From Pristiophorus japonicus (lineage: Eukaryota), in contig NC_091984.1 in the NCBI RefSeq assembly GCF_044704955.1, positions 78,430,001 to 78,494,000 on the forward strand: 64,000 bases of DNA, given 5' to 3'. Every line of letters begins with the position of its first letter. Position 1 is the stretch's first letter. Below, piece after piece: positions 6,974 through 61,992 of the stretch. A model generated the notes under the pieces. It saw nothing but the letters and a program-made list of their open reading frames with translations. It searched no databases and was not told the origin of the DNA. Both the position numbers and the translations under genes were made by a program.

Positions 6974-9964
6974 TGTAGTGTATGTAGGCAACTTTAGTAA
7001 TGACTCCACGAGGCAGGGTATGGTACTTAAACTGTGCAGACCTGCAGTCTTTTATTAGCAGCTCCTGTGCAGGCAACCCCTGGGTCTCCAGCAACAGCAC
7101 CCTCTAGTGTACCGGTAAGGTGTGTACAGTACAAGTGTATATTCAATATTGCATACAGTGTTATAGACATCACACAGTGAACAGGCATGCCTACACAACA
7201 ATACTCCCCCCTAAGCATTTTTCATATCCTTGTTGTCATGACCAGGGGAGGTGATCAGTGGTGGGCTATGGGAGGTTGTGCTGAGGGTTGTGTGGTTGGC
7301 AGGTGTGACCCCTGTGCTTGAGGCTGGCCTCGTACTTTTTCCCTCCCTCACATGCAAACCAAGTGGGTGTCACTGTTGTGGGATCCCTCGGGGAGGTAGC
7401 CACGGCAGCAGTGGGTGGGGTGTATACACTGTGATGTGGGTAGTTGTGGGGTGGTGGGCAGGGCCACAAAACTGGGTGGGCTCATTGTCCACCAATGGAG
7501 ATGAGGGTCAGGTCATCCCAGGGTTTGCCAGGGAAGCTGGAGGGTATTGGCCTCATGCTTCTGGTGTTGGCCCTGGTGGCCAGGGGCTGTAGGGTTGGTC
7601 TGGTGCAGGTTGCCATTGGTGGTGGCTGGGCTGCCCATTGACCACTGTCTCTGTAGTGGGTCTGCTCCCACTGCCTGTGTGTGTATCCTGCAAGGGGCAT
7701 CACATTCATTCCAAAGGTCCAGGCTACATGGTCAGATAGCCTGCTGGACCTGGGGGTCTCCCACAGGGGGATTCCATAGGCATTAGCATGGTCCCTGTAG
7801 GACCCAATGTCCTTTGGCAGTGTCCTACCGGTATACATGACACCTTGGCTCTGATCATACATAGTCGAGCCTGCATTATACATTCTAGCACTTGCATCAC
7901 TTTTGGCTGTCCTGGTTTCAACAGACATGGTTACATTAGGCATTTCACAATTTCTATCTTTATTGTTAAGCATAATAAACTTGTTCTTAACTTACTGACA
8001 CCTACATTCATCTCATTAATCACATTAGTTAAACCAGCATCACAATTCATGGTTACATTGCATACATTTTCATACTTGCACTCTTTAATTGCATTTTTAG
8101 CTTTAAAGTCCGTGTACTCAAATAGTTGGAACTTCCCCTTTAAATTTTTTTGGTTACCGGTCTCCTTTAAGGGAGCCTTCAAATCCGATTGGCCACTCGA
8201 TGTCACATGATGCTCCTCCATGTTGACTCATGGCATAGAGGAGGCCATTTTAAATGCAGGTCTGCTGCTTGTGGTGCTGCAGCCATTTTGTGATGCTCTT
8301 TTCTTCCACATGCTTGTGGTGCTGCAGCCATTTTGTGGTCTTGTTGCAGGCAGGCTGTGGTGTTCTTTTCTTCCACATGCTTGTGGTGCTGCAACCATTT
8401 TGTGGTCTTACTGCAGGCAGGCTGTGGTGCTCTTTTCTTCTACAGCACCACTTCGCCAGATGTGGACCCAGTTCATCCAATTCCTGCTCAGCAGCGTGGG
8501 ACCATCGCCGGCTACAATCCACAGGGGGAATTTGTTTAACACGCCGCCCTGGGAGACCTGGACGTCTACACTGCCAACAATTTGGATTTTACCTTTGGTA
8601 TAGGTGAGCAGCTTTGCCTGGACAGGAGACAGTTTTGGTCGAGTGACAAGATTCCTCCAAATTTTTTCAAAGGTCTTTTGGCTCATCACAGACTGGCTCA
8701 CCCCTGTGTCGATCTCCATGGAGACTGGTACCCCGTCGATGTCCACTTCCATCATCCACGGAGAACTTTCGGTGGAACAGGTAAAGATTCCATACTCTTC
8801 TCCCAGGGTTAGAGCAGCTTTATCTTCATCTGTGTCGGAGCCCCGGTGATTAGCTAACTCATCAGAGACACAGTGAGTACAGCCTTTTCTGCACATTCTT
8901 TAAAGGTGCCCTTTTTCTTTGCAACCTTTGCATGCATAGTCTTTGCAGCGGCACTGGTGGGCCCTGTGGTTTCCTCCACAGCGCCATCACGGGGCCATCC
9001 GGTTTGCCCCATGTGGCGGACTCAGGGTTGCAGGACTCGGGGCAGCATTTCTGCCTTTAGAAGTGTCCATACGGTGCATTGTGCTCACCGGTTTAGAGTC
9101 CTGGGTCAGTATTCGCCTGGAGTCGCTGGCCGAAACCATGTAGGCCTGGCTCATTTGAATTGCTTTCTGCAGGGTGACCGTGATGTCAGCCGAGAGCAAT
9201 TTGTGTAGGAGACCTTTGTGGCCGATTCCGATGACAAATATGTCCCTTAGTGCTTCATTAAGGTGGTTGCCAAACTCACACAGTGCAGCTAGTCTTCTTA
9301 AGTGTGCAGCATACTTGGCAATTTCTTGGCCCTCTGGTCGCCGGTAAGTGTAGAACCGGTGCCTAGCTGTGAGGATGCTTTCTTTCGGTTTTAGTTGTTC
9401 CTGTATGATTGTTACAAGTTCCTCATAGCTCTTGGTGGTTGTCTTCTCCGGGGCTAGTAAGTCCCTGATGAGACCCTAGATGGTGGGCCCACAACTGCTA
9501 AGCAGGATGGGGCCCTGCGTTTGTTCGGTAGTGTGGCCGGTGTGTCCCCGTCCAGGTCGTTGGCTATAAAGAAGTGTTCCAATCTTTCCACAAAAGCATC
9601 CCAATCTTCCCCCTCTGTAAAATGCTGAAAGTTGCTGAGATTAGACATGTTGAGCGTGTAGTTCGTGATCCCGTATTCCCGTCGCCAGTTGTAGTGTATG
9701 TAGGCACCTTTAGTAATGACTCCATGAGGCAGGGTATGGTACTTAAACTGTGCAGACCTGCAGTCCTTTATTAGCAGCTCCTGAGTGACGACAACAAGCT
9801 GTGTGTTCCTTTTTATACTGGGTTACCTGCCGTGTGCAGGCAACCCCTGGGTCTCCAGCAACAGCACCCTCTAGTGTACCAGTAAGGTGTGTACGGTACA
9901 AGGGTACATTCAATGTTGCATGCAGTGTTACAGACATCACACAGTGAACAGGCATGTCTACACA
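6974..9964 (-). mobile_element. Non-autonomous LTR element B (gag-protease-unknown ORF; no RT/RH/IN), nested in the integrase of A
   Basis: LTRs 6974-7200 and 9690-~9964; PBS TGGCGACGGG; PPT; gag MSNLSNFQHFTEGEDW, two CCHC-like knuckles, protease EIDTG, then unknown ORF ~7266-8221. Confidence 0.9.
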
Positions 9965-24536: not shown

Positions 24537-27500
24537 TGATCGGTCCTTACTATACAGTATAAATGCACACGAGGCCCATGCTTGAGAGAAGGTCAGTCTG
24601 TGACCTGTCCTTTATTCCTTAGCACTCCAAGTGATGAAGGTGGGTGGAGCTTCCCCTTTCGTACCTGAAGGCCCAGGTTAGGATTGTCTTCCACCTAGTG
24701 GTCATTGTTCTCACAGTGTACAACTTAGGTCAGATTATACATGGGTTACAATGCTGGTTGAATAAATGACATCACCTCCCCCCCAAAGTCTTATTGGGAT
24801 CACAGGTTGAGTCTCTCTGGTGGTTTAGAGCGCCTGAGTTGGGGCTCCGGTTGTTGGGCGCTGGCCTGAGTGTCTGCTGTTTGCGGTGCCTCAGGCCTAT
24901 CCAGACTGCCCACAGTGATTGGGCTCTCCTCCACTTGGTTCCGGTGTTCGTTCACCTGTGGTGGAGTGAACTCTATATCGTGTTCTTCCTCTGCTTCTTC
25001 TATGAAGTTGCTGAACCTCCTTTTTGTTTGATCCACGTGTTTGCGGCAGATTTGTCCATTGGTAAGTTTAACTACCGGAATCCTATTTCCCTCTTTGGCA
25101 ACCACAGTGCCTGCAAGCCATTTGGGCCCAGCAGCGTAATTAAGGACAAAAACAGGATCATTTACATCAATACATTGCGCCCTCGCATTCCTGTCATGGT
25201 AGTCATATTGTGGCTGGCGCCTGCTCTCGACAATTTCTTTCATGGTGGGGTGTATAAGGGATAACCGGGTTTTGAGCGTCCTTTTCATTAGCAGCTCTGC
25301 GGGTGGAACCCCTGTGAGCGAGTATGGTCGGGATCTGTAGGCCAACAGTTGGCGTGATCGGTGTCTTTGTAGGGAACCCCCTTGGATTCTGAGCATCCCC
25401 TGTTTGATTATCTGCACTGCTCGTTCTGCCTGGCCGTTTGAGGCCGGCTTGAACGGTGCCGTTCTGACATGGTTAATTCCATTGCCTGCCATGAAGTCCT
25501 GGAATTCAGTGCTTGTGAAGCACGGGCCATTGTCTCTGACCAAGATATCCGATCGACCGTGGGCGGCGAACATTGCCCGTAGACTTTCTACCGTGGCAGA
25601 GGATGTGCTTGAATTTAAAATGTCACACTCGATCCATTTGGAGTAGGCGTCTACTACAACCAAAAACATTTTTCCCATGAAAGGATCTGCGTAGTCCACA
25701 TGGATGTGTGACCAAGGCTTGGCGGGCCATGGCCAGTGGCTAAGGAGGGGTTCCCTGGGCGCATTGTCCAGCTGGGCACACGTGTTGCACCTGCGAACAC
25801 AAAGTTCCAGATCTGCGTCTATCCCTGGCCACCAAACGTGTGACCTCGCAATTGCCTTCATCATGACAATGCCCGGGTGCTCATTGTGGAGTTCTCTGAT
25901 AAACATCTCTCTGCCCATGACTACGCGGTTTCCCCACAGTAAGTAATCGGCCTGAATCGAGAGTTCATCCCTGTGCCTGTGAAATGGTTTAAATTCCTCA
26001 GGGACTGCCCTGTACGTGGCTGCCCAGTCCCCATTCAGGACACATTTCTTGACTAGAGACAATAGCGGGTCTCTATTTGTCCAGACTTTAATCTGACAGG
26101 CTGTCACGGGTGAGCCTTCACTTCCGAAAGCTTCAACAGCCATGACCATCTCAGCAGCATGCTCGGTAGCCACTTCAATGGTGGCTAGTGGGAGCCTGCT
26201 GAGTGCATCGGCACAATTTTCGGTGCCCGATCTGTGCCGAATTGTATAGTCATAGGCGGCTAACGTGAGTGCCCACCTCTGTAGGCGGGCCGATGCGTTT
26301 GCATTTATGGCCTTGTTGTCAGCCAAAAGGGACGTTAGGGGTTTGTGATCTGTCTCCAGCTCAAATTTCCTGCCAAACAGGTACTGGTGCATTTTCTTTA
26401 CAGCATATACACATGCGAGCACCTCCTTTTCTACCATCCCGTAATCCCTTTCTGCCTGGGACAGACTCCTGGAGGCATAAGCTATCGGCTGTAACTGACC
26501 CTTGACATTGACATGCTGCAACACACACCTGACATTATAGGATGACGCATCGCACGTTAACACAAGTTTCTTACATGGGTCGTATAGTGTTAACAGATTG
26601 TTGGAACATAACAAATTGCATGCTTTATTAAAAGCCCTTTCCTGGCTGTCCCCCCAGACCCATTCTCGACCTTTGCGTAGGAGCACGTGTAGCGGCTCAA
26701 GCAGCGTGCTCAATTTGGGAAGAAAGTTACCAAAATAGTTCAGGATCCCCAGGAACGAACGCAGCTCCATCGTGTTACGGGATCTGGGTGCTCTCTGGAT
26801 CGCTTCCGTCTTGGACGCAGTAGGGCTGATCCCGTCTGCTGTTACCCTCATCCCCAGGAATTCTACCTCTGGAGCTAGGAAGACGCACTTTGCCTTTTTC
26901 AGTCGCAGCCCTACCCGGTCCAGTCTGCGTAGCACCTCCTCCAGGTTGTGGAGGTGTTCTTCAGTATCGTATCCCGTGATAAGAATGGCGTCCTGAAAAA
27001 CCACCGTCCCTGGAATCGACTTGAGGAGGCTTTCCATATTTCGTTGGAAGATCGCGGCGGCCGAGCGAATCCCGAAAGGGCATCTGTTGTACTCAAACAA
27101 CCCCTTGTGTGTCATGATGGTGGTCAGCTTCTTCGACTCATTCGCCAGCTCCTGGGTCATGTAAGCTGAGGTCAGGTCCAATTTTGAAAAAAGTTTGCCA
27201 CCGGATAGCGTCGCAAAGAGGTCCTCCGCTCTCGGTAGCGGGTACTGGTCTTGGAGTGACACCCGATTGATGGTGGCCTTGTAATCACCACATATCCTGA
27301 CCGACCCATCCGCCTTGAGCACCAGCACAATCAGGCTCGCTGAGTCACTGAATTCGACTGGCGAGATGATGCCTTCCCTCAGCAGGCGGTCCAATTCGCC
27401 TTCTATCTTTTCCCGCATCATGTACGGCACCGCTCTGGCCTTGTGGTGTACTGGCCTGGCGTCCGGGTTTATGTGAATCACTACCTTGGCCACCATAAAA

Positions 27501-28638
27501 GTGCCGATGCCGGGTTGAAATAGTGAGTTAAATTTGTCCAGGATCTGTGAGCATGATACTCGCTCCACAGAGGAAATTGCATTGACATCACCCCATTTCC
27601 AGTTCATGACAGCAAGCCAACTCCTCCCCAGTAGTGCGGGACCATCCCCTGGGACAATCCAGAGTGGCAACCTGTTCTCCGAATCTTTGTGGGTCACGAC
27701 TACCGTGGCGCTGCCTAGCACCGGAATGATCTGCTTTGTGTAAGTCCGTAGCTGTGCGTCAATCGGCAATAATTTTGGCCTCCTGGCCTTGGGCACCCAC
27801 AACTTTTCGAACTGTTTGATACCCATCAGAGACTGGCTGGCCCCCGTGTCTCGCTCCATTGATACTGGGATGCCACTGAGGAGCACTTTCATCATTATCG
27901 GTGGCGTCCTGGGGTATGAACTATATACGTGCTCCACATGAACTCGCTGAACTTCAGCTTCCAGCGATTTCCCCCAGCGTTCATTTCTGCAATTTCTGCA
28001 GGTATTTTGCTCATCTCTGCAAACTGCGGCTGAGTGTGTGCCTCCACGCCTCCAACATAAGCTGTTGTTGGAAACAAAAGGTCCCTTGCCAGTCGATCGT
28101 CCCTGACTGCCCCTGTTATTGTCCTTGAGTGCGCCATTAACAGGTGTTGATGGCCCCATTACTGGCCGCATTGTCCCTTGCAATGGCGTGAATCACCGTT
28201 CAGCTTGCCATTGTCTCTGTCGAACTCCCCCTCTGGGTTCGACTACATGTTGGGGCATGCCCGACTGTCCTTGTCTGCCTGGAGAACTGTGTGCTGCTTT
28301 AACAATGTTGAATCTCTGTCCCAACCATTCCTTAACACGGTACCTCTCATCTGTTCTGCTCATGGCCATGCTCGCGTGGTTTAAATCCCAGTTTCTCGTC
28401 GCCATTGATAGGTCCTTACTCTACAGTATAAATGCACACGAGGCCCATGCTTGAGAGAAGGTCAGTCTGTGACCTGTCCTTTATTCCTTAGCACTCCAAG
28501 TGATGAAGGTGGGTGGAGCTTCCCCTTTTGTACCTGAAGGCCCAGGTTAGGAGTGTCTCCTACCTAGTGGTCATTGTTCTCAGTGTACAACTTAGGTCAG
28601 ATTATACATGGGTTACAATGCTGGTTGAATACATGACA
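24537..28638 (-). mobile_element. Ty3/Gypsy LTR retrotransposon C (gag-deleted, pol open)
   Basis: LTRs 24537-24771 and 28406-28638; TSD CCTAA; PBS TGGCGACGAG; PPT next to 24772. Confidence 0.96.
24800..28183 (-). CDS. Gypsy pol polyprotein (protease, RT, RNase H, integrase), 1127 aa
   Basis: DTG protease; ICGDYK, LDLTSAY, FQDA (catalytic DD mutated); CDAS, TDHKPL; HHCC, HVDY, DNG, NGQAER. Confidence 0.92.
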   Translation of the reverse strand: MQGTMRPVMGPSTPVNGALKDNNRGSQGRSTGKGPFVSNNSLCWRRGGTHSAAVCRDEQNTCRNCRNERWGKSLEAEVQRVHVEHVYSSYPRTPPIMMKVLLSGIPVSMERDTGASQSLMGIKQFEKLWVPKARRPKLLPIDAQLRTYTKQIIPVLGSATVVVTHKDSENRLPLWIVPGDGPALLGRSWLAVMNWKWGDVNAISSVERVSCSQILDKFNSLFQPGIGTFMVAKVVIHINPDARPVHHKARAVPYMMREKIEGELDRLLREGIISPVEFSDSASLIVLVLKADGSVRICGDYKATINRVSLQDQYPLPRAEDLFATLSGGKLFSKLDLTSAYMTQELANESKKLTTIMTHKGLFEYNRCPFGIRSAAAIFQRNMESLLKSIPGTVVFQDAILITGYDTEEHLHNLEEVLRRLDRVGLRLKKAKCVFLAPEVEFLGMRVTADGISPTASKTEAIQRAPRSRNTMELRSFLGILNYFGNFLPKLSTLLEPLHVLLRKGREWVWGDSQERAFNKACNLLCSNNLLTLYDPCKKLVLTCDASSYNVRCVLQHVNVKGQLQPIAYASRSLSQAERDYGMVEKEVLACVYAVKKMHQYLFGRKFELETDHKPLTSLLADNKAINANASARLQRWALTLAAYDYTIRHRSGTENCADALSRLPLATIEVATEHAAEMVMAVEAFGSEGSPVTACQIKVWTNRDPLLSLVKKCVLNGDWAATYRAVPEEFKPFHRHRDELSIQADYLLWGNRVVMGREMFIRELHNEHPGIVMMKAIARSHVWWPGIDADLELCVRRCNTCAQLDNAPREPLLSHWPWPAKPWSHIHVDYADPFMGKMFLVVVDAYSKWIECDILNSSTSSATVESLRAMFAAHGRSDILVRDNGPCFTSTEFQDFMAGNGINHVRTAPFKPASNGQAERAVQIIKQGMLRIQGGSLQRHRSRQLLAYRSRPYSLTGVPPAELLMKRTLKTRLSLIHPTMKEIVESRRQPQYDYHDRNARAQCIDVNDPVFVLNYAAGPKWLAGTVVAKEGNRIPVVKLTNGQICRKHVDQTKRRFSNFIEEAEEEHDIEFTPPQVNEHRNQVEESPITVGSLDRPEAPQTADTQASAQQPEPQLRRSKPPERLNL

Positions 28639-41540: not shown

Positions 41541-42120
41541 TTTGGCTTTTGTTTCAGGATTATGGCCAAGAGGAGGCTGTGATGATCAGTAACCGAGGGA
41601 AGGTAAGGTGTGGGGCAAATGTTGAAAGGGGAATTGGGGTTGTGGTCACTGTTACCGCAGAAGGATGATTCCATCCTGGATATCCCAGTCAGAAAGGGGC
41701 TATCTGGGTTGCATCCTTCCTTCTGTTTACTCCTCTTCTGCGTCTTCCTCTTTTGCATCTTCGTCTTCCCTCTGCGAGCGGAAGCTGTAAATCTGAAATT
41801 ACAGTGTAAAATGCTGGACATACTCAGCTGGCCAGGCAGCATCTTGACTTGAGAAGTGAACTTTGTTTCTCTCTCCACAGATGCTGCCTGTCCTGATGAG
41901 CATTTGCAGCATTTTCTGTCATCTCAGAGGCCTTCCTTTTACCACTCAAAGCCTTGCAAGCATCCAGCAGCACTCACTGCACTACCTGCATACTTTAACA
42001 ACTTTTGACATCTTTTGCACCAAGATACTACTTCAATAAAATATATATATTTAAAAACTTAAAGGCAAATGTGCTTGAAAAATGTGTGCATCCCTTTAAG
42101 AAGCACTGACAGCATCTCTG

Positions 42121-45100
42121 TGTTCTGTCTTGGATAAGGAGTCAGACTAGATACTGCAAGCTCAAAGTAAGTGTGACAGTAGTCCTTTATTACAGATCGC
42201 AGATTGTCTCTCCAGCCTCCGAGGCCTCCTGAAAAACAGGTGCTCCCAAGGGATTGTGGGATCTATTGGGACTCCAGGGGATAAGCCCTCTGGTGGTAAG
42301 ACATGGTAATTACAGGTTTCCATACATAACAACACTCCCCCCCCACCCCCCAAAGTCAATAGTGTAATTATTTACAATGTGAATCGATCTGGGGCCTGGG
42401 TTGATCATCTTGGTGCAAATGCTGGTGTTGGTGAATCGTTTGTTGGGCATTCGCTGGGCTGCTGCGCAGCTGGCCTTGCTGGGCTGCTGGGGGTGGTGAG
42501 TCTTGCTGGACTGCTGGGGGTGGTGAGTCTTGCTGGGCTGCTGGGAGTGGTGAGCCTTGCTGGACTGCTGGGGGTGGTGAGCCTTGCTGGACTGCTGGGG
42601 GTGGTGAGTCTTGCTGGGCTGCTGGGGGTGGTGAGCCTTGATGGGCTGCTGGGGGTGGTGAGTCTTTCTGGACTGCTGGGGGTGGTGAGTCTTGCTGGAC
42701 TGCTGGGGGTGGTGAGCCTTGCTGGACTGCTGGGGGTGGTGAATCTTGCTGGGCTGCTGGGGGTGGTGAGCCTTGCTGGACTGCTGGGGGTGGTGAGTCT
42801 TGCTGGACTGCTGTGGGTGGTGAGCCTTGCTGGGCTGCTGCGGGTGGTGAGCCTTGCTGGGCTGCTGGGGGTGGTGAGTCTTGCTGGGCTGCTGCGGGTG
42901 GTGAGCCTTGCTGGGCTGCTGCGGGTGGTGAGCCTTGCTGGGCTGCTGGGGGTGGTGAGTCTTGCTGGGCTGCTGGGGGTGATGGGTTCTGCTTCATGGT
43001 CAACCGCTGGGTCGGTTGCCACTTGAGTGTGTGTTGGAGGGTCGAAAAAGGTAGAGTCTATTGTGGGTTGTTCTGGATAGTCCGTAAATCTGAGTTTGGT
43101 TTGGTCCAAGTGTTTTCTGCAGGTGTGTCCATTTGCGAGTTTGACAACAAACACCCTACTCCCCTCTTTGGCCAAAACAGTGCCAGCAATCCACTTGGGA
43201 CCTTGTCCATTGTTCAACACAAATACAGGATCATTTATGTCAATTTCGCATGACACATTAGCGTGATCATGATATGTATTCTGTTGAAGCTTCCTGCTCT
43301 CTACCTGTTCATGTAGATCAGGGTGGACTACCGAAAGCCTTGTCTTAAGTGCCTTTTCATGAGCAGTTCAGTGGGAGGGACCCCGGTGAGCGAGTGGGGT
43401 CTTGTGCGGTAACTAAGCAGGGCTCGGGATAAGCAAGTCTGCAGTGAGCCTTCCGTTACCCTTTTCAAGCTCTGCTTGATTGTTTGAACTGCTCGTTCTA
43501 ACTGATCATTGGACGCTGGCTTAAACAGGGCAGACGTGACATGTTTGACCCCATTGCGGGTCATGAATTCCTTGAATTCGGCACTGGTAAAGCACGGACA
43601 ATTGGTACTTACAAGGACATCAGGCAGGCCGTGTGTGGCAAACATGTCCCGTAGGCTTTCAATGGGCAGTAGGCAGCAGACATGCTTGCCTACATTATCA
43701 CACATTCAATCCACTTGGAGTACGCATCTACAACCACTAAAAACATTTTACCCAAGAATGGGCCTGCATAGTCGACATGAACCCAAGGCCACGGTTTGGA
43801 GGGCCAAGACCATAAACTTAGTGGCGCCTCCCTGGGTGCGTTGCTTAACTGGGAACATGTATTACATTTGTGCCAACAGGACTCTAAGTCTGCATCGATA
43901 CTGGGCCACCACACATGGGATCCGGCTATCGCTTTCATCATTACAATGCCTGGGTGGGTACTGTGGAGATCACTAATGAAAGTGTCCCTGACCTTTTTTG
44001 GCACAACTACCTGATTACCCCATAGGAGGCAGTCTGCCTGTATAGACATTTCATCTTTGTGCTGCTGGTACAGCTTTATTTCTTCCTGCATCTCTAACGG
44101 GACACTGGACAACTCCCGTGGAGCACACAGTTTTTTACTAAAGACAGTGAGGGATCCTGGCTTGTCCAGGTTTTAATCTGTCGGGCGGTAACAGGTGATT
44201 GCTCACTCTCGAATGCTTCCATTACCATAACTAAATCTGCAGGCTGTGCCATCTGCACCCCTGTGGTGGCCAACGGTAGCCTGCTGAGAGCAGCGGCACA
44301 GTTTTCTGTGCCTGGTCTGTGGCGGATGGCATAGTTGTATGTGGACAATGTGAGCGCCCATCTCTGGATGCGGGCCGATGCATTCGTATTTATCCCTTTA
44401 TTTTCAGGAAAGAGGGATATAAGCGGCTTATGGTAGGTTTCCAATTCAAATTTGAGCCCGAACAGATATTGATGCATTTTCTTTACCCCGTAAACACACG
44501 CCTACGCTTCTTTTTCGATCATGCTGTAGGCACTCTCGGCCTTAGACAGACTTCTGGATGCATAAGCAACCGGTTGCAATTTCCCAAATTCATTAGCTTG
44601 TTGCAATACACACCTGACCCAGTACAACGACACATCACATGCTAGTACCAAACGTTTACATGGATTATACAACACAAGCAATTTGTTTGAACAGAACAAC
44701 TTCCTAGCTTTCTCAAAGGCATTTTCTTGGCTTTTATCCCATACCCATTCATCTCCTTTACGCAGTAAAGCGTGCAGGGGTTTTAACAATGTGCCAAGAC
44801 CCAGTAAGAAGTTATCAAAATAGTTCAGGAGTCCTAGAAACGACTGCAGCTCCGTCACGTTCTGTGGTCTTGGTGCGTTCTTGATTGCCTCCGTCTTCGA
44901 ATCGGTGGGCCTGATGTCGTCCGCTGTGATTCTTCTCCCCAGGAACTCCACTTCAGGTGCCAAGAAATGCACTTCGAGCATTTTAGCCGGAGCCCCACAC
45001 AATTGAGCCGACTAAGAGCCTCCTCCAGGTTCTGCAGGTGCTCGACGGTGTCCCGTCCTGTAACCAAGATGTCATCCTGGAAGACCACGGTGCACGGGAC

Positions 45101-47136
45101 CGACTTCAGCAAGCTTTCCATGTTCCCCTGGAGTATCGCCGCGGCCGATCAAATCCCAAACAGGCATCTGTTTTAAATGAAAAGACCTTTGTGCATGTTG
45201 ATGCAGCTGAGGCCTTTCGAAGATTCCTCCAGCTCCTGCGTCATGTAGGCCAAGGCCAAGTCCAGCTTCGTGAACGTTTTCCCTCCCGCCAGCGTCGCAA
45301 TTAAGTCGTCTGCCTTTGGTAGCAGGTATTGATCCTGCAGTGAGAAACGATTGATAGTTACTTTGTAATCACCACAGATTCTGATGGTGCCGTCTCCCTT
45401 GAAGACTGGAACAATCGGACTGGCCCACTCATTGAATTCAATTGGCGAAATGATGCCCTCTCGTTGCAGCCTGTCCAGCTCGATCTCCACCCTCTCTCTC
45501 ATCATGTAAGGTTCCGCTGTCGCCTTGTGATGGTTGGGTCACGCCCCCGGAATCAAATGGATCTGCACTTTTGCTCCTTGGAACTTCCAGATGCCTGGTT
45601 CGAACAGCGAGGGGAACTTGCTTAGGGCCTGGGCACATGAGGTGTCGTCAACGGACGAAAGCACTCGGACGTCGTCCCAGTTCCAGCGTATCTTTCCCAG
45701 CCAGCTCCTGCCGAACAACGTGGGGCCATCGCCCGGTACCACCCAGAGTGGTAAATCGTGCACCGCTCCATCGTAGGAAACCTTTACGGTAGCTCTGCCA
45801 ATTACAGGAATCAGTTCCTTTGTATACGTTCTAAGTTTGGTACGAATGGGAGTCAGGACTGGCCTTGAAGCCTTGTTGCAACACAACTTATCAAAAGTTT
45901 TTTTACTCATTATGGACTGGCTTACACCCGTATCCAGCTCTATGGACACCGGGAGTCCATTTAATTCAACCTTCAGCATTATCGGGGGACACTTTGTGGT
46001 AAATGTGTGCACCCCATATACCTCTGCCACCGCGGTCTGAGGCTCTGGTTCATCATGATCTACCATGGATCTGTCCTCCTCTGCAATATGGTGGTTTGCA
46101 GGATTAGCAGGGTTTGCAGCTCGTTTGCACATACATTGGAGGTGTCCCATTGTTCCACAGCTCTTGCAAACGTACCCTTTGAAGCGGCATGAATGGAATT
46201 GATGATCACCCCACAGCGCCAACAAGGTGCTAATTGCCTTGTATTCACCACCCTTGATGGCAGACTCTGAGTCATCTTCGGACATGCAGCTACAGGCGTG
46301 TAAGTCCTGCCATGTACATTTCGATTCAAAAACAATGTTACTTTGTTCACAGTATTTGCAGCAGCACTAATGTGCTGGGAAATTTGTTTGGTATTGTCAC
46401 TGGTGGAGATAAACGTCTGGTCTAGCGCTATGACTTTACTCAAGGTTGGGGTTTCTACAGTCAACAGTTTGCGAAGTATTACTTCATGGCCAATGCCAAT
46501 ACAAAGAAGTCCCTGAGAATGTGCTCCAAGTGTCCTTCAAATTCGCAATGACCTGCAAGGCGCCTTAGCTCGGCAACGTAGTTCGCCACTTCCTGGCCTT
46601 CAGACCTCTTGTACATGTCGAACCGATACCTCGCCATCAGAACGCTTTCCTTCGGGTATAGATGCTCCCGGACCAGTGTGCACAACTCATTGTACAACTT
46701 GTCTGTGGGTTTTGCTGGAGCGAGCAGGTTTTTCATGAGGCCATACGTTGGTGCCCCGCAAACGTTGAGGAGGATCGCCCTTCATTTGGCAGCGTTCCCT
46801 TCTCCTTTCAGCTCATTGGCCACCAAATATTGGTCAAGTCGCTCTCCCTCTGAAAATTTCTCCAGGATGCCCACAGTTATCTGCATTGTTGCATTGGGGT
46901 TCATCATCCGTATCTCGTCGCCAGTTGTTATGTCTTAGATAAGAAGTCAGACTAGATACTGCAAGCTCAAAGTAAGTGTGACCGTAGTCCTTTATTACAG
47001 ATCTCAGAGTGTCTCTCCAGCCTGTGAGGCCTTCTTATATACAGGTGCTCCCAAGGGATTGTGGGATTCCTTGGGACACCAGGGGATAAGCCCTCTGGTG
47101 GTTAGACATGGTAATTATAGATTTACATACATAACA
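42121..47136 (-). mobile_element. Ty3/Gypsy LTR retrotransposon D (complete layout, degenerate)
   Basis: LTRs 42121-42331 and 46926-47136; TSD CTCTG; PBS TGGCGACGAG; gag, DTG, FQDD, RH and IN fragments. Confidence 0.95.
42473..42982. repeat. 27-bp minisatellite, ~19 copies, in the integrase C-terminal tail of D
   Basis: (T/C)CTTGCTGG(A/G)CTGCTGGGGGTGGTGAG; reads SSPARLTTP in the pol frame. Confidence 0.95.
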
Positions 47137-47539
47137 CTCTGCAGGGCTGCTTCACGCACGCTTTTCTGTGCGTGCTTAGGACCCGGTGTAATGATGAGCA
47201 AAATTGTCCAAACTAGCAGCCCTGGTGTCAAGTCGAGTGTTGAACGGCGATTGATGTCACAATCTGCTCATTTACATTTGAGAAGCCAGCGTTATCAACG
47301 GCCCTTACCAAAATGGCGGTCACTGTGTCCTGCACCAAAAGCAGGCGGAAGTGACACAGCTGTCAATTTTTTGAGAAAACCAGCATTAATGTCATTCAAT
47401 TTCTAGGCCATGGTGCTTTATAACTTTTATCTCATTCCTAGATCTCAAAAGATAATCGGCTGAAAATTCGGTATTGCGTCGCAAGCTATATTGGGCTTAC
47501 CACCCCCAACAGGAACTGCTGCATAAAATCAGAGCCTGT

Positions 47540-48780
47540 ATTGTGGTGCCCACATTACCACACCTTACCTTCCCTCTGTTACTGACCATCACAATGTCCT
47601 CTTGGCCAAAATGCTGAAATAAAAGCCACCACAAAGCAAACTTTCCAATTTAACTTTATGCATATATGCATCCAATATGACACCAAGAAATCAACTAATC
47701 ACCCTTGTGCATTCCCTTAGTGACTGTCTTGTGTGTGCCCTTGCCTATCCTACTGATGTCATGCAGTGCAGCATGGCTGGTCTTCTCTCTTCTTGGTCAC
47801 CCACTGGCTGGGTAGGCTGCATTTCCTTGGTGTCTGAAATGAGGAAGGCACAAGAGTATAGTTGTGGTGAGGGGAGGGCGGGAAATCAAGAGTTGCATGC
47901 TTACACCATGTGACCCTTGGAACGAGATTGTGAGATGAGGAGGAAGCGGGATGTGAGAAGGAAAATAACATATGAGAATACCAACATCTTGTATCCTTTC
48001 AGCACTGAAGCTGACCAAGGGCTCAGCCACACCCTTGCCAAGAATAGTCAGCAATGTCTCCTCCAAGGGGGTGAGGTGAAGCTAGGAATGGGAGGTGGAG
48101 GTGTACCTCAAGATTGCTAGAGATTGTTCGTAGGTGAGTTATGGGGAAGGTCGTGCAATGAGCAGTGTGTGACGCTAGTGGTGCTGTTGGTAGGAGACGG
48201 CTTTTGAAGATAGCTTCACTGACCTTGACCACAGGTCTGAGGTCATGAAACTTCTTTGGGCACTGGAGCCAGGTGCTGGGGGTGACACTGCTGGCAGTGA
48301 TAGCTGTGGTGAGCTGGTCTCGCATCCTTCTTTCTGGAGGACCTCCTGGTTTCCTGTGGGAAGAGAACCTCTCTTGCATTGTTGATCTCCCGCACAAAGC
48401 TGGAGTGCTGCGTGCAAGACCCTGGGTGCCCCTTACCTGTCTTGTTGAACTATTTGCGTTAGCGCTGATGCACATTTACCATTTTGTTACATGCAGAAGG
48501 CAGTTCAGCTTTAAGAGCTGAAGACAGCCATTTCGGAATTATTTTTAATGTTTTTTTTTCAGAAATCAGTTGACCTCAAAGCACTAAAGACTGTCTATTT
48601 TCAAATGATTTTCATTTTACAAGGCAGTTCTCCTTTAGGGGATTAACAGTGCTTTCTAAAATGACAAGCTGACTTTGGAGAACGCTGCCTTGCTCCAGGG
48701 ACGCTATGGCCATGCCACATTTAGTCCCCTGCTGAGACTACTGCCAGAAATAATACGTTACACTGCAGGTTTTGCACTGT
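47540..48780 (-). mobile_element. Second copy of the same old Harbinger-like family (Myb relic)
   Basis: TWLQCPKKFHDLRPVVKVSE Myb-like end; reverse-complement similarity to 38297-38510, 39950-40190, 40555-41040 and 41542-41620. Confidence 0.7.
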
Positions 48781-49779: not shown

Positions 49780-52700
49780 GTGGAATTAAACTATAGACCC
49801 GGTGGGAACCTGTTCAACCTTCGTCGCCATCAGGCCAGATCCAAGACCGTCCCATCCTCTGTCGTCGAGCTATAGTATGCGGACGACGCTTGCGTCTGCT
49901 CACATTCAGAGGCTGAACTCCAAGACATAGTCAACATCTTCACTGAGGCGTACGAAAGCATGGGCCTTACACTAAACATCCATAAGACAAAGGTCCTCCA
50001 CCAACCTGACCCCGCCACACAGCACTGCCCCCCAGTCATCAAGATCCACGACACAGCCCTGGACAATGTGGACCACTTTCCATACCTCGGGAGCCTATTA
50101 TCAGCAAGGGTTGACATTGACGACGAGGTCCAACACCGCCTCCAGTGCACCAGCGCACCCTTCGGCCACCTGAGGAAGAGAGTGTACGAAGATCAGGCCC
50201 TCAAATCTGGCACCAAGCTTATGGTCTGCAGGGCTGTAGTGATACCCGCCCTCCTGTAAGGCTCAGAGACGTGGACCATATACAGTAGACACCTCAAATC
50301 GCTGGAGAAATACCACCAACATTGTCTCCGCAATATCCTGCAAATCCCCTGGAAGGACAGATGCACCAACATTAGTATTCTCGTTCAGGCCAACATCCCC
50401 AGCATCGAAGCACTGACCACACTTGATCAGCTCCCTTGGGCGGGTCACATTGTTCGCATGCCTGACACAAGACTCCCAAAGCAAGTGCTCTACTCAGAAC
50501 TCCTACAGGGCAAGCGAGCCCCAGGTGGGCAGAGGAAACGTTTCAAGGACACCCTCAAAGCCTCCTTGATAAAATGCAACATCCCCACCGACACCGAGGA
50601 GTCCCTGGCCAAAGACCGCCCAAGGTGGAGGAAGAGCATCTGGGAGGGCGCTGAGCACCTCGAGTCTCATCACCAAGAACATGCAGAAAACAAGCGCAGG
50701 GCAGCGGACAGAGCATGCAGCAAACCAGACTCCCCACCCACCCTTTCCTTCTATTGTGTATGTAGGCACCTTTGGTAATGACTCCACGAGGCAGTGATAT
50801 GGTACCTAAACTGTGAAGACTGTAGTCCTTTATTTGCAGCTCCACGAATGTGGACACCATGCTGTAAGCTTCCTTTTATACCGGGTTACCTGCAGTGTGC
50901 AGATAACCCTTAGATCTCCAGTAGCAGTACCCTCTGGTGTACAGGTAAGGTGTGTACAGTGTAAAGGTACATTCAGTGTTACAGACATCGTACAACAATG
51001 CATACATACATAACACCACTCCCCCCTAAGCATTTTTTAAATCCTTATTGTCATGACCTGGGGAAGTGATCAGAAGTGGGCTATGGGAGGTTGTGGTGAG
51101 GGTTGTGTGGGTGCCAAGTGTGATCCCTGTACTTGAGGCTGGCCTCATGTGTTTCCGCCCCCCCCCTCCTCACACACAGACCATGTGGGTATCACTGTTG
51201 TGGAATCCCTCAGTGAGGTAGCCATAGCAGCAGTGGGTAGGGTGCATACTCTGTGATGTGGGTAGTTGTGTGGTGGTGGGCAGGGCCACAGGACTGGGTG
51301 GGCTCCTTGTCCTCCAATTGGGATGAGAGTCTGGTCATCCCAGGGTTTGCCAGGGAAGCTGGAGGTATTGGCCTCTCGCTTCTGGTGTTGGCCCTGGTGG
51401 CCAGGTGGTGTAGGACTGGTCTGGGACAGGTTGCCAGTGGTGATGGCTGTGCTGCCCATTGACCACTGTCCCTGTAGTGGGTGTGCTCCCACTGGGTGTG
51501 TGTGGGCCCTTCCTGGGGCATCACATTTGTTCCAAAGGTCCAGGCTACAATGTCTGGTAGCCAGCTGGACCTGGAGGTCTCCCACAGGGGGATACCTCTA
51601 TCATTTGCATGGTCCCTGTAGAACCCAGTGTCCTTTAGCAGTGTCCTACCTGTATACATGACACCTTGGCCCTGATCACACATCGTCAATCCTATATTAT
51701 TGACTGCCTTTACATTATAAATTACAGCATTTGCATCACTTTTTGGTGTCATGGTCTCACTAGACATGGTTACATTAGGCATTTCAAACTCTCTGTCATA
51801 ATCATCAAACATAACAAGCTTGTTCTTAAACTTACTTAAACAAGCATTCATTTCATTTGTCACACTAGTTACACCAGCATCACAATTCATGGTTACATTA
51901 TCATACTTGCACCCTTTTGCTGCATCTTTAGCTTTAAAGTCCTTGTCATCATTAAGTTGAAACTGTCCCTTTACATTTTTTTGGTTACCGGTCTCCTTTA
52001 AGGGAGCTTTACAATCCGATTGGCCACTCGGTGCCACGTGCCGCTCCTGCAACGCTGCCCCTCCTGGTCTGGCCACGGCCATTTTGATTGCAGGTTCTTC
52101 TCCTTGTGGTGCAGCCATCATCTTCTGGCTCTCCTCCAAGTAGGCTGTGGTGGTCATTTCTTCCTCAGGTTCGACCATGGGCGTCGGGAATCCACTTCTT
52201 TCGATGATGTTCGCCTCATAGAGTCCTGCCCCGGCCCGGAAGGTGGAGTTTGGGTTTTCGGTTCTCGAGCTTTCACCACGATGTTGTGGAGTCGTCGCCG
52301 CGCAGTCGAGCTGGACGGTGGAATCTCTGGATGCAGCGATGGATCCAGGTTTGATGTAGATTGCTGGATGTTTGCTTGGGCAGGATGCAGATTTGGTCAA
52401 TTGGCGGGATTTATCCAAATTATTTCAAAGGTCATTTGGCTCAACAGAGACTGGCTCGCCCCTGTATCGATCTCCATAGCAACTGGGACCCCGTCGATGT
52501 CTACTTCCATCGTCCACGGGGAACTTTCGGTGGAGCACGTATAAATTCCATACTCTTCTTCCAGGTGTTGAGCAGCTTCACCTTCATCTGTGTCGGACTC
52601 CCGGTGATGAGCCAACTCTTAAGAAACGCGGTCAGTAAAGCTTTTTCTGCACATTCTATGAAGGTGCCCTTTCTCTTTGCAGTCTTTGCATGTATAGTCT

Positions 52701-53784
52701 TTGTAGCGGCACTGGTGGGCACTGTGGTTTCCTCCACAGCGTCAGCATGGGGCCATCCAGTTTGCCCCATGTGACAGACTCAGGGTTGCGGGACTCGGGG
52801 CAGCATTTCTGCCTTTAGAAGTATCCATGCGGTGCACTGCATTCGCCAGTTTAGAGTCTTGGGTCAGTATTCGCCTGGAGTCACCGGCCGAAACCATGTA
52901 AGCCTGGCTCACTTGAATTGCTTTCTGCAGGATGTCTGCAGATAGCAATTAGTGTAGGAGACCTTCGTGGCCGATTCTGATGACAAATATGTCCCTTAGT
53001 GCTTCATTTAGGTGGTCGCCAAAGTCACACGGTGCAGCCAGTCTCCTTATGTGTGCAGCATACTTAGCAATTTCTTGGCCTTCGAGTTGCTGGCTGTGAG
53101 GATGCTTTCTTTTGGTTTTAGTTGCTTCTGTATAAGTGTTACAAGTTCGTCATAGATCTTGGTGGTTGTCTTCTCCGGGGCTAGCAAGTCCCTGACGAGA
53201 CAATGGATGGTGGGCCCACAACTGCTAAGCAGGATGGCCCTGCGCTTGTTCGGTCGTGTAGCCGATGTGCCCCCATCCAGGTCGTTGGCTATGAAGAAAT
53301 GTTCCAATCTTTCTACAAAAGTATCCCAATCTTCCCCATCGGTAAATTGCTGAAAGGTGCTAAGATTCGACATGCTGAGCGTGTAGTTCGTGACCTCGTC
53401 ACCAGTTGTTGTGTATTAGGCATCTTTAGTAATGACTCCATGAGGCAGGGTGTGGTACCTAAACTGTGTAAACTGTAGTACTTTATTTGCAGCTCCACAA
53501 GTAAGGACACTAAGCTGTGAGCTCCCTTTTAACTGGGTTACCTGCAGTGTGCAGGTAACCCTTAGGTCTTCAGCAGCAGCACCCTCTGGTGTACAGGTAA
53601 GGTGTGTACAGTGTAAAGGTACATTCAGTGTTACAGACATCATATAACAATACAAGCAATACATAACACCTTCAACGACTGTCTATCCCACCTGTGACTG
53701 TTTTGGACTGTTCAGTCACCTAAGAACTCACTTTTAGAGTGGAAGCAAGTCCTCCTCGATTTCGAGGGACTGCCTATGATGATG
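49780..53784 (+). mobile_element. RTE-clade LINE 3' part, split by LTR element E
   Basis: YADDAC, GLTLNIHKTKVL, FPYLGS, RMPDTRLPKQVLYSEL; (ATG)n tail at ~53776; AGCTGGA on both flanks. Confidence 0.9.
50752..53668 (-). mobile_element. Non-autonomous LTR element E (gag, partial protease, unknown ORF), relative of B
   Basis: LTRs 50752-51015 and 53407-53668; TSD CCTTC; PBS TGGTGACGAG; PPT; gag MSNLSTFQQFTDGEDW; EIDTG; 402-aa ORF 51210-52418. Confidence 0.93.
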
Positions 53785-55698: not shown

Positions 55699-56889
55699 TC
55701 AGGCATCAGTAAAGCGTTCACGGATCAGCTGCTGGCGCAAGGCTCGAGCAATCGTTAAAGGAGCACGATGGCCCGCCCTCCTCCACCGTCGTGCTCCAGC
55801 CTCAGGCACTTGCATGGCTTCCTCATCCTCGTCATCCTCCTCCTCCTGTTCGTCACCCGCATCTTCCACATCATTATCATCAGCCACTCTCACCGCAGGT
55901 GGATCTTCCACTACCAGATGCTGCTGCCTCATGTTATGCAGCACGTAGCACACAACAGCGAACTGACCGACAATCTCAGAGGAGTAGAGCAAGCAGCCTC
56001 CGGAATTGTCCAGGCATCGGAAACGCTGATTCAATATGCTAATGGTCCTCTCAATGATGCTGTGCGACATGTTGTCTTGATGGTCAACTTCCATCCGGGT
56101 TACACGTAGGGGTGTCATGAGCCAGGTGGCAAGGCCGTATCCTTTGTCTCCCAGTAGCCAGCTGTGCCCTTCTGGCTGCTGCTGAAACATGGCAGATATA
56201 ATACTGTCGCGTAAGATGAATGCATCATGGGTGCTGCCAGGGTATCTTGCATCGACTGACATGATATGTTGTATGTCATCACACATGAGCTGCACATTAA
56301 TGGAGTGGAAGCCTTTTCTCTTCCTGTACATCTCGGAATCTTTCAAAGGTGCTCGCAACGCAATGTGGGTACAATCAATGTAGCCGTGTACCTTTGGAAA
56401 GTCAGCAATCCTTGAGAAGCCCACATCTCTGTCATGGATTGCTTGGGCGGTTATGGGGAACTTTATGAAGCCATTCCCACGCGTGTACAATGCAGCCGTG
56501 ACCTGGCGACTGGAGACATGTGTTGCATGTTGAGAGATGGCACATACATCCCCTGTTGTGTCTTGAAATGATGCGGAGGCATAGAATGAAAGTGCAGCTG
56601 TAACTTTCACTTCAACTGACAAAACAGGCTTCTAGGTTGCAGGTCTGCTTTGACCAACTCACAAATCTCACTTACAACTTCTTTGCGGAAACACAGCCTT
56701 CTGACACAGTCTGCATCACTCAGGTGGAGGTACAAACGCCTGTCTTGACGAGGTGGGTAAGACTTCCTGCCCAGCATCCTATGGGCTCTGATGTTCCTGA
56801 TGCAATGAGGTTGAATCAATTGTCTCCTATGTAGCATCATGATGCAGAAGGCTCGCACAAGGTAAGGCATTGTCAGTATTGCCCCCATA
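55699..56889 (-). pseudogene. Harbinger (HARBI1-like) DDE transposase
   Basis: GYIDCTHI, RKGFHSINVQ, ARYPGSTHDAFI, LGDKGY, IIERTI, CYVLHN; frameshift near 56620. Confidence 0.92.
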
Positions 56890-56959: not shown

Positions 56960-59777
56960 TGTAAAGTCTTGTCCCCTCAGTACAGATTCACACGAGGCAT
57001 GTAGTGAAGTCAAGGTCACTCTGGACCTGCACCTTTATTTCACAGCTCTGGAATGCTGCACTTGCCTGAGACCTCTCCTTATATACCTGTCTCTTGCAAG
57101 TGCACCCCTGGTGGTAAGGTATGCTGGTGATTACAGGTCATATCTTATTACAGTCATGTATAGTATGTTAGAATACAGTTATATATAATAATGTAAGATA
57201 CATGACATCACCCTCCCCCAAGGTCTTATTGTCTTTATAGGTTCAGTCTCTCAGATGGTCTACGCTCTCGCATGGAGCGTCTGAGTTGTGGTTCAGTTGT
57301 TTGCCTTGGTGTCTGTTTTTCTTTGGGTGTGGTTGCTGGTATCTCGCCTGGACTGTCTGTTTCGATTGGTGTGATTGTTGTTGACTCGCCTGGGCTGTCT
57401 GTTGGGATTGCCCTTTCCTCAGGTTGTTCCCTCTGTCTGTCCATCAGGTGTGGTGCGAGTTCCACATTGTAGTCTGCCTCTGGTTCTGCAGTGTTGTTGG
57501 TAAATCTGCTTTTGACTTCGTCTACATGCCTCCGGCAGGTTTTGCCATTGTCCATTTGTACTACCAGTAGCCTGTTTCCTTCCTTGCCCGTTACTGTCCC
57601 TGCAAGCCATTTGGGACCCCTGGCATAGTTTAGTACAAACACTTTTGTCCCCTATCTCATTCCATCTCCCCCTCGAATTTCTGTCATGGTACTCAGTCAG
57701 CTTATGGCGCTTTGCCTCAATGTTTTCGTGCATGTCTGGGAGGATTAATGAGAGCCTTGTTTTTAAAGTCCTTTTCATCAACAGTTGCGTGGGGGGGTTC
57801 CCAGCCAATGAGTGCGGACGAGATCTGTATGCCAGCAGCAGTCGTGACAGGCGACCCTGCAGCATGGGACCTTGGATTTTAAGCATGCCTTGTTTAATGA
57901 TTTGCACTGCTCTCTCCGCCTGGCCGTTGGAGGCCGGCTTGAACGGTGCCGTCTTGACGTGATTTATGCCGTGGTCAATTATAAAGTCTTAGAATTCTGC
58001 GCTGGTGAAGCACGGACCATTGTCACTGACCAATATGTCAGGGATTCCGTGCGTTGCAAACATGGTTGCGAAGCTCTCCACAGTGGTGGAGGTTGTGCTC
58101 GAGTTTAAAATGGTGCATTCGATCCACTTTGAAAATCCATCTACAACTACAAGGAACATTTTGCCCATGAATGGGCCCGCATAGTCTACGTGCACCCGCG
58201 ACCACGGTTTAGTAGGCCAGGGCCAGGGGCTCAGTGGAGCTTCCCTGGGGGCATTGCTGAGTTGGGCACAAATGGTGCACCTTCAGACGCAGAGCTCCAA
58301 GTCCGCGTCAATACCAGGCCACCAGACGTGGGATCTGGCTATGGCCTTCATGAGAACGATCCCCGGGTGCTCACGGTGGAGCTCCCGGACAAATGCCTCT
58401 CTGCCTCACAGAGGCATGACTACTCGGCTGCCCCACATCAGGCAGTCTGCTTGTAGTGATAGCTCATGCATGCGCCTGTCAAAGGGTTTTAATTCCTCGG
58501 GGCAGGCATCGCGAGCCTCTGCCCAGCCACCGGTTAGGACACATCTTTTTACTAAGGATAACGTGGGGTCGCTGGCCGTCCAGGCTCTGATTTGGCGAGC
58601 CATCATGGGCGAACCTGTGGACTCAAAAGCATTGATTGCCATGACTATCTCACAGTCCTGTTCGTCAGACCCTTCCGTGGTTGCCAGGGGTAGCCTGCTG
58701 AGCACGTCGGCACAGTTGTCTGTGCCTGGTCTGCACCTTATGGTATAGTCGTCAGACGCCAGCATGAGTGCCCACCGTTGAATTCGCGCTGAGGTGTTGG
58801 CGGTTATTGCCTTGCTCTCGAATAGGAGGGACGTGAGGGGCTTGTGGTCGGTTTCTAACGTGAACTTGGCCCCAAAAAGGTATTGGTGCATCTTTTTGAC
58901 ACCGTACACGCACTCGAGCGCCTCCTTCTCTACCATTCCGTACATGCGCTCTGCCCGCGAAAGTGACCTGCATTGTAAATCAACCTCGTTTCTTCTTCCC
59001 CTACCAAGAATGTCTGTGCAACCAGTGCTGCTGCCTCTAAGGTCAGGTTCTTGGTCTCTATGAGCTTTCGGAATATGCCTGCGTGGCCTATTCCTTCAAT
59101 GAAAAAGTCTCTCAGCATTTCTCTCCTCAGTTCATTGGAGAACTCTCATAAACTTGCTAACCTCCGAAGTTCCGCCACGAAGTCGGGTATGCTCTGGCCC
59201 ACACAGCGTCTGTAGTTGTAGAACCAGTGTCTAGCCATATGTAGGCTGCTCGCTGGCTTCAGGTGGTCTCTTACCAGTGTGCTTAATTCTTCAAACGACT
59301 TGCTTGCTGGTTTCTCGAGTGCCAACAGATCCTTCATTAAAGCGTATGTTTTCGAGCCACAGCTGGTCAAGAGATAGGCTCTTCTCTTGTCTGCCTTATC
59401 GTCGCCTAACCAGTCTTTGGTTACAAAGCTTTGCTGGAGCCTTTCTATAAAGTCCTCGCAATTGTCTCCCGCATTGTACTTTTCATCTGATCCGTTGTTC
59501 GCCATTCTGTGGATTCTGTAATCCTGTAACTCGTCGCCACTGTAAAGTCCTGTCCCCTCAGTACAGATTCACATGAGGCATGTAGTGAAGTCAAGGTCTC
59601 TCTGGACCTGCACCTTTATTTCACAGCTCTGGAATGCTGCACTTGCCTGAGACCTCTCCTTATATACCTGTCTCTTGCAAGTGCACCCCTGGTGGTAAGG
59701 TATGCTGGTGGTTACAGGTCATATCTTATTACAGTCATGTATAGCATGTTAGGATACAGTTATATGTAATAATGTAA
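56960..59777 (-). mobile_element. Ty3/Gypsy LTR element F, internally deleted (gag joined to RNaseH/integrase)
   Basis: LTRs 56960-57207 and 59541-~59777 (outer end clipped, no clean TSD); PBS TGGCGACGAG; PPT; no PR/RT. Confidence 0.92.
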
Positions 59778-61031: not shown

Positions 61032-61992
61032 CAATATTCAGATGCAAAGTCTACTGAATTGAGTTCAGGCCAGCCACCTCTTTGGCTTTGCAACCAATGC
61101 AAATCAAAGTTTAAAATGTTCTTGGTTATTCCACTGGAATCAGTGGGAACTTCTTAATGTTCAATTTTGATTCTTTTTAATGTTAGTAGAGTGCTGACTA
61201 TCCCATTGGCTCTTTGTTAGCACCATAATTTAACCAGAACTTGAATGTCAGTAAACAGAGTACTACACATACAAGTAAACAAAGACTGCACACAACTCCA
61301 TATTCTCTGGCCAGAGAAAGACATGCAGCCAGCAACGTAATTTGGTTCTTCCGACAGTTGCATTGCTTTCGAAAGCGAGTAGTCTCAAACCAGTAATTGG
61401 TGAACCTTCAATTTAAAAGTTAATTAAAAAAAACTGTACACTAGCTGCAGTTAGAGTGGGTAGAATTTTAACTGGCAAGAACGAGTGTGTTGGGGTCAGG
61501 TGCATACTTAAAATCGGAGTCAAATGAAATGCAGCCATAACCCAGTTCCATTGAGCCGACTTCTGAGTTTAACGGAGGCTTGTTTAGATGTATACAAGTA
61601 ACCTGCTCACTGGAGACAGCACGATCATTAGTACAGGTGTTTGGGCATTTAATCATTTAACATGCAATTACATGCAAATGAGGATCTTTTAAAATGAATT
61701 TAACTTTCCTTTGGATTTAATGCCACCAGCATGGGTTTCCTGGGGTTTGGGAAACATGTCAGTGAAAAGGATCCAAGTGTGAGCTGCACTGCATGGGGGT
61801 CTTTAACATTCAGATCTCAATAAAGGCTCAGTTCTTACAGTTGCTTTGCCAGCTCTATCTGGCAAACGTTTAGCAGAGAATTCGTGTCAGCATCGAGGTT
61901 TTGGAGAAGTCTGGAGGCTATCAAACAGATGCCAGCAGGATGGGAGGCGCTCTGGATGTTTTTGACACTACATTAGAAGAGGAATAGAATCA

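Follow-up and report, generated by a model that had tools for sequence, protein, structure and literature searches.

A non-autonomous Gypsy clade of the sawshark Pristiophorus japonicus with a likely pol fossil in frame behind its protease

Results

Two related LTR elements with gag and protease

A stretch of 64,000 nucleotides from the 5.9-Gb genome of the sawshark Pristiophorus japonicus (assembly GCF_044704955.1, contig NC_091984.1, positions 78,430,001 to 78,494,000 of the forward strand; hereafter the window) was analysed for two related long terminal repeat (LTR) retrotransposons of Gypsy type, element E and element B, the latter from a sister family of E. A preliminary description of this DNA had read them as ~3-kb insertions with gag, a DTG protease, a primer binding site (PBS) and a polypurine tract (PPT), and both insertions proved to be real. 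It had also proposed that, in place of reverse transcriptase (RT) and integrase, the two carry a common open reading frame (ORF) between protease and PPT, which we call ORFX. Here we examine where ORFX comes from and what keeps its frame open.

Element E (50752..53668; all features of E and B lie on the minus strand) is a non-autonomous element inserted in sequence resembling a long interspersed nuclear element (LINE), and an RT match at 49876-50256 lies in its flank within these LINE-like surroundings. Its 5′ LTR (53407..53668) and 3′ LTR (50752..51015) are identical at 233/261 positions, and both flanks bear an exact 5-bp target duplication. The PBS (53394..53404), whose family form complements the 3′ end of tRNA-Ser(GCU), is followed by gag (52560..53373; ATG at 53373, two Cys/His knuckles at 52649-52747), the aspartic protease (52371..52559; DTG at 52460-52468), a linker (52029..52370), ORFX (51145..52028, from SGQSD to the family stop at 51147) and the PPT (51016..51029). 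In the window copy, gag has stops and a net 31-nt loss, ORFX has a frameshift near 51365, and ~178 nt are missing across the protease end (482 nt versus ~660 in most relatives). Because of this last loss, the ORF of 404 amino acids (aa) at 51210-52424 opens with an unrelated frame, and its N-terminal stretch is not ORFX.

Element B (6974..9964) interrupts another Gypsy element within its integrase region. Its 5′ LTR (9690..9964), next to which lies the primer site (9677-9687), and its 3′ LTR (6974..7197), which is 51 nt shorter through an internal loss, are identical at 213/224 positions; the outer ends and the target duplication are not canonical. Behind gag and protease (8475..9648) follow a linker (8198..8474), in which a direct repeat of ~67 nt varies in copy number among family members, and ORFX (7266..8197, family stop at 7268). 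Across B-family loci the linker has this repeat, with the word A[AG]ATGG[CT][TG]GC, which we take to be YY1-like, 0-3 times; one unit has been lost recurrently, in two sub-types, with a shift of the frame.

Elements E and B agree at 78-84% in alignment. In both, gag bears two Cys/His knuckles and is accompanied by a DTG protease (Pfam Asp_protease_2, E-value 7e-6). The ORFX peptides quoted in the preliminary description were located in both window copies, and the two larger ORFX indels between the families are indeed 9 and 18 nt and keep the frame. The frame is common to both, as had been said, but its length had been put too high, at ~350-400 aa: the homologous part from SGQSD to the family stop has about 295-310 codons.

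Non-autonomous families with thousands of candidate copies

DNA queries with ORFX gave 3681 (E) and 3108 (B) first-look candidates, which are not copy numbers and of which 40 each were scored; candidate copies of the families number in the thousands. Paired LTRs were found in 41 of 42 E/B copies (40 refetched and the two in the window), with L069 failing the boundary call. The pairs end in TG..CA, lie 2.9-3.2 kb apart and are 86-98% identical, and 24 of the 42 were assigned an exact 5-bp duplication, one of them doubtfully. The complementary tRNA end has 192 matches in the genome, and tRNA-Ser(gct) was called at two of the four loci scanned. As the 40 copies had been selected by ORFX, a second selection was made with protease DNA as a check: none of 29 other loci ran on into RT, and 28 reached ORFX. 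The RT and integrase motifs searched were likewise absent, as had been noted for the two window copies, from all 100 copies of E, B and two further families, C and D (below). The E/B gag-protease region is homologous to that of elements bearing RT, RNase H and integrase, and the protease matches the Pfam aspartyl protease. These data support the earlier view of a non-autonomous lineage that keeps its own capsid and protease. Element length is 2.9-3.2 kb in E/B and ~3.5 kb in C; two additional E/B relatives, L113 and L118, have a longer 3′ non-coding part.

The tails of families C and D are decayed pol

Family C was found via a diverged copy within L171 (5497 candidates) and family D via a database match (P0004). 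Elements of autonomous type were collected by the pattern of a protease followed by an RT start (520 sites, 14 fetched). The intact pol frame of an autonomous-type Gypsy element in the window (24800..28192, minus strand), which lies outside the family, served as the ruler for pol positions. The C tail, the part behind the protease, matched autonomous pol in tblastn (E-value 1e-5) and in blastn (69/102 nt, E-value 1e-11), and a DNA profile gave 46 matches (best 7e-16) and none on reversed targets. It is collinear with pol in the same frame: nt 1-143 correspond to pol aa ~196-262, nt ~142-460 to aa ~423-532, and nt ~600-1010 to aa ~545-710, covering the RT start, the RT end, RNase H and the start of the integrase linker. 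The RT catalytic core (pol aa ~262-423) is missing, and nothing maps to the integrase core. The D tail has the same map with a further loss within RNase H (best DNA E-value 2e-18). Furthermore, hhalign related family D (P0004) to pol at 96.8% (E-value 2e-10) and family C to pol at an E-value of 4.6e-5, and in the reverse search a pol profile matched 20/20 C and 20/20 D copies and no reversed copies. A protein hidden Markov model (HMM) search of pol against the tails was uninformative (best for C 7.0 and 2.5 bits, versus 2.9 for shuffles). The C and D tails are decayed in-frame remnants of the RT/RNase H part of pol.

ORFX is homologous to the C tail

E/B was homologous to C over nt 90-1077 of the C tail, both in DNA (best E-value 1e-48, no reversed match) and in hhalign (97.8%, E-value 8.6e-13). 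Over the 445 columns common to E, C and pol, identity was 0.69 between E and C, 0.69 between C and pol, and 0.53 between E and pol, with a shifted control at 0.23-0.30; stacked natural rows read MCDQSQGV in E, DCDQSYSL in C and CDASSYGV in pol. Via family C, the linker of element E maps to a stub of the RT start and to the RT end. The last ~50 codons of ORFX are homologous to C sequence beyond the C stop, and the E/B tail has been rebuilt by insertions and by read-through into formerly non-coding sequence. By transitivity through C, a pol origin of ORFX in E and B is likely, ORFX of element E being likely an eroded part of pol from the RT connection through RNase H to the integrase linker, plus read-through into sequence that is non-coding in C and D.

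The preliminary description had taken ORFX for an unrecognised cargo domain replacing pol, which found no support. What it had itself set against cargo, an alignment as decayed RT or integrase region, is what families C and D gave, and ORFX is homologous to C. Its suggestion that GKPW might be an integrase-motif relic did not hold either; GKPW is distinct from the integrase motif PAKPW, and in alignment A1 it lies above C sequence corresponding to the linker between RNase H and integrase. Sixteen weak matches of B to pol (best E-value 0.069) were rejected as out of register with the bridged map, and when E/B ORFX was compared in six frames with the pol of the window and with L161-L175, nothing emerged past the protease end.

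In a tree of the protease region with 53 rows (four candidates had no match), the 25 non-autonomous rows formed one side of a 100/100 branch and the 28 autonomous-type rows lay opposite. This unrooted tree is consistent with a single origin of the non-autonomous families E, B, C and D.

Database searches with the ORFX frames found no Pfam family beyond its cut-off and no usable match in the ESM Atlas. Protein searches gave one 44-residue match, to a LINE-fused gene model, and four among 1.84 billion representatives; the search for family D gave one. All five matched proteins are sawshark-labelled gene models holding pieces of these elements, and therefore no outside homologue of ORFX was found in these searches. 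Three such public models (P0001, P0003 and P0005) open with an element piece fused to a LINE, an immunoglobulin-domain gene or a tetraspanin; these fusions may be annotation artefacts or exonisation. AlphaFold, proposed earlier as a check, returned no confident fold for ORFX (predicted local distance difference test score, pLDDT, 41) or for the C tail (pLDDT 32). The letters RG...TF..NV.PQ in ORFX, which we take to resemble His-Me endonucleases, were confirmed neither by Pfam nor by family C. A His-Me finger endonuclease, for which a conserved catalytic DRGH...N motif would be expected, was rejected, as the motif in ORFX has no His, its letters are lost in family C and no nuclease Pfam match occurred at E-values up to 1.

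The frame runs open from gag through the tail

In family E, the gag frame has no majority-shared stop across 810 codons (30 copies). Because the other five frames hold 24-52 shared stops each over the element, the open gag-protease-ORFX frame is not due to chance. Family C likewise has a single frame without a shared stop for over 800 codons, and family D has a single open frame (20 copies each). The fusion of Gag, protease and tail is seen in natural copies, with 698 aa in L024 (E) and 580 aa in L052 (B). The single gag-protease-ORFX frame for which a check had been suggested was thus found in family E, at ~810 codons. Family B has in-frame copies as well as many with a shift in the linker that joins protease and ORFX, whose length varies from 177 to 346 nt. 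Only one B linker class forms a clade (4 copies; support of 88 in the SH-like approximate likelihood ratio test, SH-aLRT), and two of its four lengths are multiples of three. The out-of-frame classes form no clades, but the B trees are star-like, which makes it undecidable whether such classes were masters. Family C frames finish in a PPxY word (PPSY, PPGY and PPDY; L214:1937-3190, L208 and L225), presumably resembling a retroviral late domain, which may be chance.

Selection on the tail

Between E and B, the ratio of nonsynonymous to synonymous substitution rates (dN/dS) was 0.17-0.21 in gag. In ORFX it was 0.43 (0.27-0.74) or 0.55 (0.34-0.89) in the gag frame only, with the other ORFX frames at 0.71-1.31, and private, within-family variants gave 0.93-1.19. 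At non-CpG sites of ORFX, synonymous to nonsynonymous counts (S:N) were 24:31 for family differences versus 156:492 for private variants (Fisher p 0.003). The coding constraint claimed for ORFX is supported by the contrast of 0.43-0.55 between E and B with about 1 for private mutations, in one comparison of two lineages.

Constraint and frame-keeping indels, both expected from the preliminary description, were present between E and B, but deeper comparisons were near neutral. Tail dN/dS was 1.0-1.3 for C versus pol, 0.68-0.92 for C versus E, and 0.88-1.16 for D versus C, the protease of the last pair being at 0.26-0.34. The D and C tails differ at 265 positions, for which about 8 stops are expected and none is fixed (P 4e-4), and the D-C family indels occur in compensating groups and total -111 nt, a multiple of three. 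Since dN/dS is near 1 and yet no stop is fixed and these indels sum to a multiple of three, selection on the deeper branches held the frame and not the residues; amino-acid constraint appears only at the recent E/B split.

Autonomous Gypsy elements as candidate partners

A PPT-LTR junction as in E/B occurs at 2459 sites, and 15 of the first 30 elements had integrase upstream. The primer site is also common to E/B and integrase-bearing Gypsy elements. From this common junction and PBS, trans mobilisation by an autonomous partner is likely, if circumstantial. Over 20-34 nt the E/B junction agrees with that of the L101/L161 autonomous group, and the tail and the family C LTRs are nearer to the L246-L257 group. 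With such affinities of junction versus tail and LTR (L101-L130, L161-L175 and L246-L257), a change of partner is possible.

Other features of the window

Four Gypsy pol regions of autonomous type, related to one another, share one strand of the window (10260-13580, 24800-28192, 43070-46930 and 57400-59540), and one of them has an intact 1130-aa frame. The window also holds a DDE_Tnp_4 transposase frame (55699-56631, minus strand; E-value 3e-29). Long, partly nested inverted repeats, whose arms range from hundreds of bases to more than 1 kb, lie at 30479-33208, 33824-39933 and 40043-48576, and tandem arrays with units of 60, 27 and 15 nt at 22142-23521, 42367-43128 and 61949-64000, respectively. 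The element is covered by three sequencing runs of unspecified type; such coverage is no sign that it is expressed.

Discussion

Taken at a probability of about 0.6, our preferred reading is that E and B belong to a Gypsy clade that codes for Gag and protease, has neither RT nor integrase in working form, and is likely copied in trans by autonomous Gypsy partners. Behind the protease it likely carries a pol fossil whose frame is probably held open for protection of the RNA and not for a folded domain. One ancestor would have lost the RT core and the integrase core through deletion. Its RNA would be translated to Gag-protease-tail and then packaged together with the Gag-Pol of a partner that has the same PPT, LTR ends and primer site for tRNA-Ser; the partner's enzymes would copy and insert it, a route like the one proposed for the wheat pair Quinta and Cereba (PMC11302176). 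A long untranslated 3′ part exposes an RNA to nonsense-mediated decay. We propose this as the reason for the open tail frame: an early stop would expose a long 3′ part to such decay, so that lineages with early stops would have been lost. The residual constraint in E/B may reflect weak selection for a tolerable polypeptide. The family stops of E and B, 132 and 68 nt from the LTR, fit this proposal.

Several results weigh against it. The stops of C and D fit less well, as they sit ~500 nt before the LTR and leave a sizeable 3′ untranslated part. B linkers were out of frame in 35 of 53 measured (5 more were skipped), mostly via repeat-unit loss, and L113, which branches just outside E/B, has lost most of its tail. 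The E/B ORFX dN/dS exceeds what stop avoidance explains, and the low pLDDT of ORFX and the C tail may stem from shallow alignments. Direct comparisons of E/B ORFX with pol gave no significant DNA match in either direction, an hhalign E-value of 0.26 and protein HMM scores no better than shuffles. Pol letters kept in E and lost in C numbered 21/47 versus 18 expected, which is not significant, and therefore the 0.53 identity between E and pol adds nothing past transitivity.

A different weight is given to the E/B constraint if the pol-fossil tail is now a working extension of Gag-protease in E/B, for example in assembly, cis packaging of the RNA or competition with the Gag-Pol of the partner. 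The dN/dS below that of private variants in the gag frame only, the shifted S:N ratio, the two frame-keeping indels and the rebuilding of the tail by insertions and read-through would all suit such a role, as would the in-frame lengths in half of the sole clade-forming B linker class. This constraint is, however, far weaker than that on gag and comes from a single pair of lineages, deeper comparisons are near neutral, and ORFX has no confident fold, no Pfam family past the cut-off and no Atlas match. We consider a working extension rather unlikely.

Tentatively, and with a chance that we put low, a dead pol, its frame held for RNA-level reasons throughout a parasitic LTR clade of long standing, would have drifted past recognition and would now be re-selected in E/B as a new Gag-fused domain, a gene birth with the stages pol, D, C and E/B in one vertebrate genome. 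If this were true, the same route could account for unknown domains elsewhere among non-autonomous elements with Gag, DUF1 of the wheat element Quinta (below) being an example.

Mere inheritance of the open frame from pol, without selection, would agree with dN/dS of about 1 for pol versus C and for D versus C, and with the numerous out-of-frame B copies. At a dN of about 0.4, however, many stops are expected, about 8 for D versus C alone, the D-C indels compensate one another to a multiple of three, and E versus B is significantly constrained, which makes unselected inheritance improbable. Capture of foreign cargo, such as a nuclease-like domain, would suit purifying selection, the missing direct pol match and the resemblance to His-Me endonucleases, but is very improbable indeed: collinearity with the pol-derived tails of C and D refutes it for the N-terminal two thirds of ORFX, the final ~50 codons have their homologue in 3′ sequence that is non-coding in C, the nuclease-like letters are absent in C with no nuclease Pfam match, and the sole database matches are the five gene models holding element pieces.

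Selection for an open frame can here be told apart from selection for amino acids, the thousands of copies serving as a neutral control. Two questions thereby become testable, namely why useless sequence goes on being translated in parasitic retroelements and whether new domains arise from such frames. The case also cautions that a constrained, Pfam-negative retroelement ORF need not be cargo.

In the literature we found neither this family described nor any pol fossil that drifts neutrally while staying in frame, the survey having covered papers and not Repbase, Dfam or supplements, so that a library entry may exist. Closest at home are the autonomous Gypsy elements of the same genome (L246-L257, L161-L175 and window 24800-28192), which have Gag-Pol in one layout, a tRNA-Ser-type PBS, a similar PPT and similar LTR ends, and whose gag-protease is 30-46% identical in the main matches; unlike E/B, they keep RT, RNase H and integrase, and their LTR bodies differ. 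Plant TR-GAG elements, in the parts of their description available to us (PMC4350172), are similarly non-autonomous and under 4 kb, with TG..CA LTRs, PBS, PPT, a 5-bp duplication and one Gag/zinc-knuckle ORF, their families having been chosen for the absence of any resemblance to protease, RT, RNase H and integrase. The sawshark clade, in a vertebrate host, keeps a protease and an in-frame pol remnant; it has the size and the single Gag ORF of TR-GAG elements and is not a strict member of that group.

In zebrafish, BHIKHARI-1 and -2 are likewise a vertebrate non-autonomous LTR family with Gag but not Pol; as far as the excerpted account goes (PMC12067270), they differ in their lokiretrovirus (retroviral) origin, in carrying gag only and in a shown host role. 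Among sugar beet families, eight keep GAG/PROT remnants and decayed RT, RH or INT pieces, but these remnants are patchy, and the accessible portion of that report (PMC13570524) gives none that stays in one open Gag frame while drifting beyond Pfam. Wheat RLG_Quinta, according to the passages at hand (PMC11302176), shares PBS and LTR termini with RLG_Cereba, which mobilises it, and is proposed to contribute Gag. Quinta is, like the sawshark clade, long-lived and non-autonomous, with Gag plus a domain whose function is not known (DUF1) in a single ORF. Those passages list no protease, and the authors suggest a later acquisition of DUF1, whereas the extra domain of E/B traces to pol. Gag-bearing non-autonomous LTR elements, some with an unexplained extra domain, are thus known; in the sawshark, the origin of such a domain is traceable to pol through graded families.

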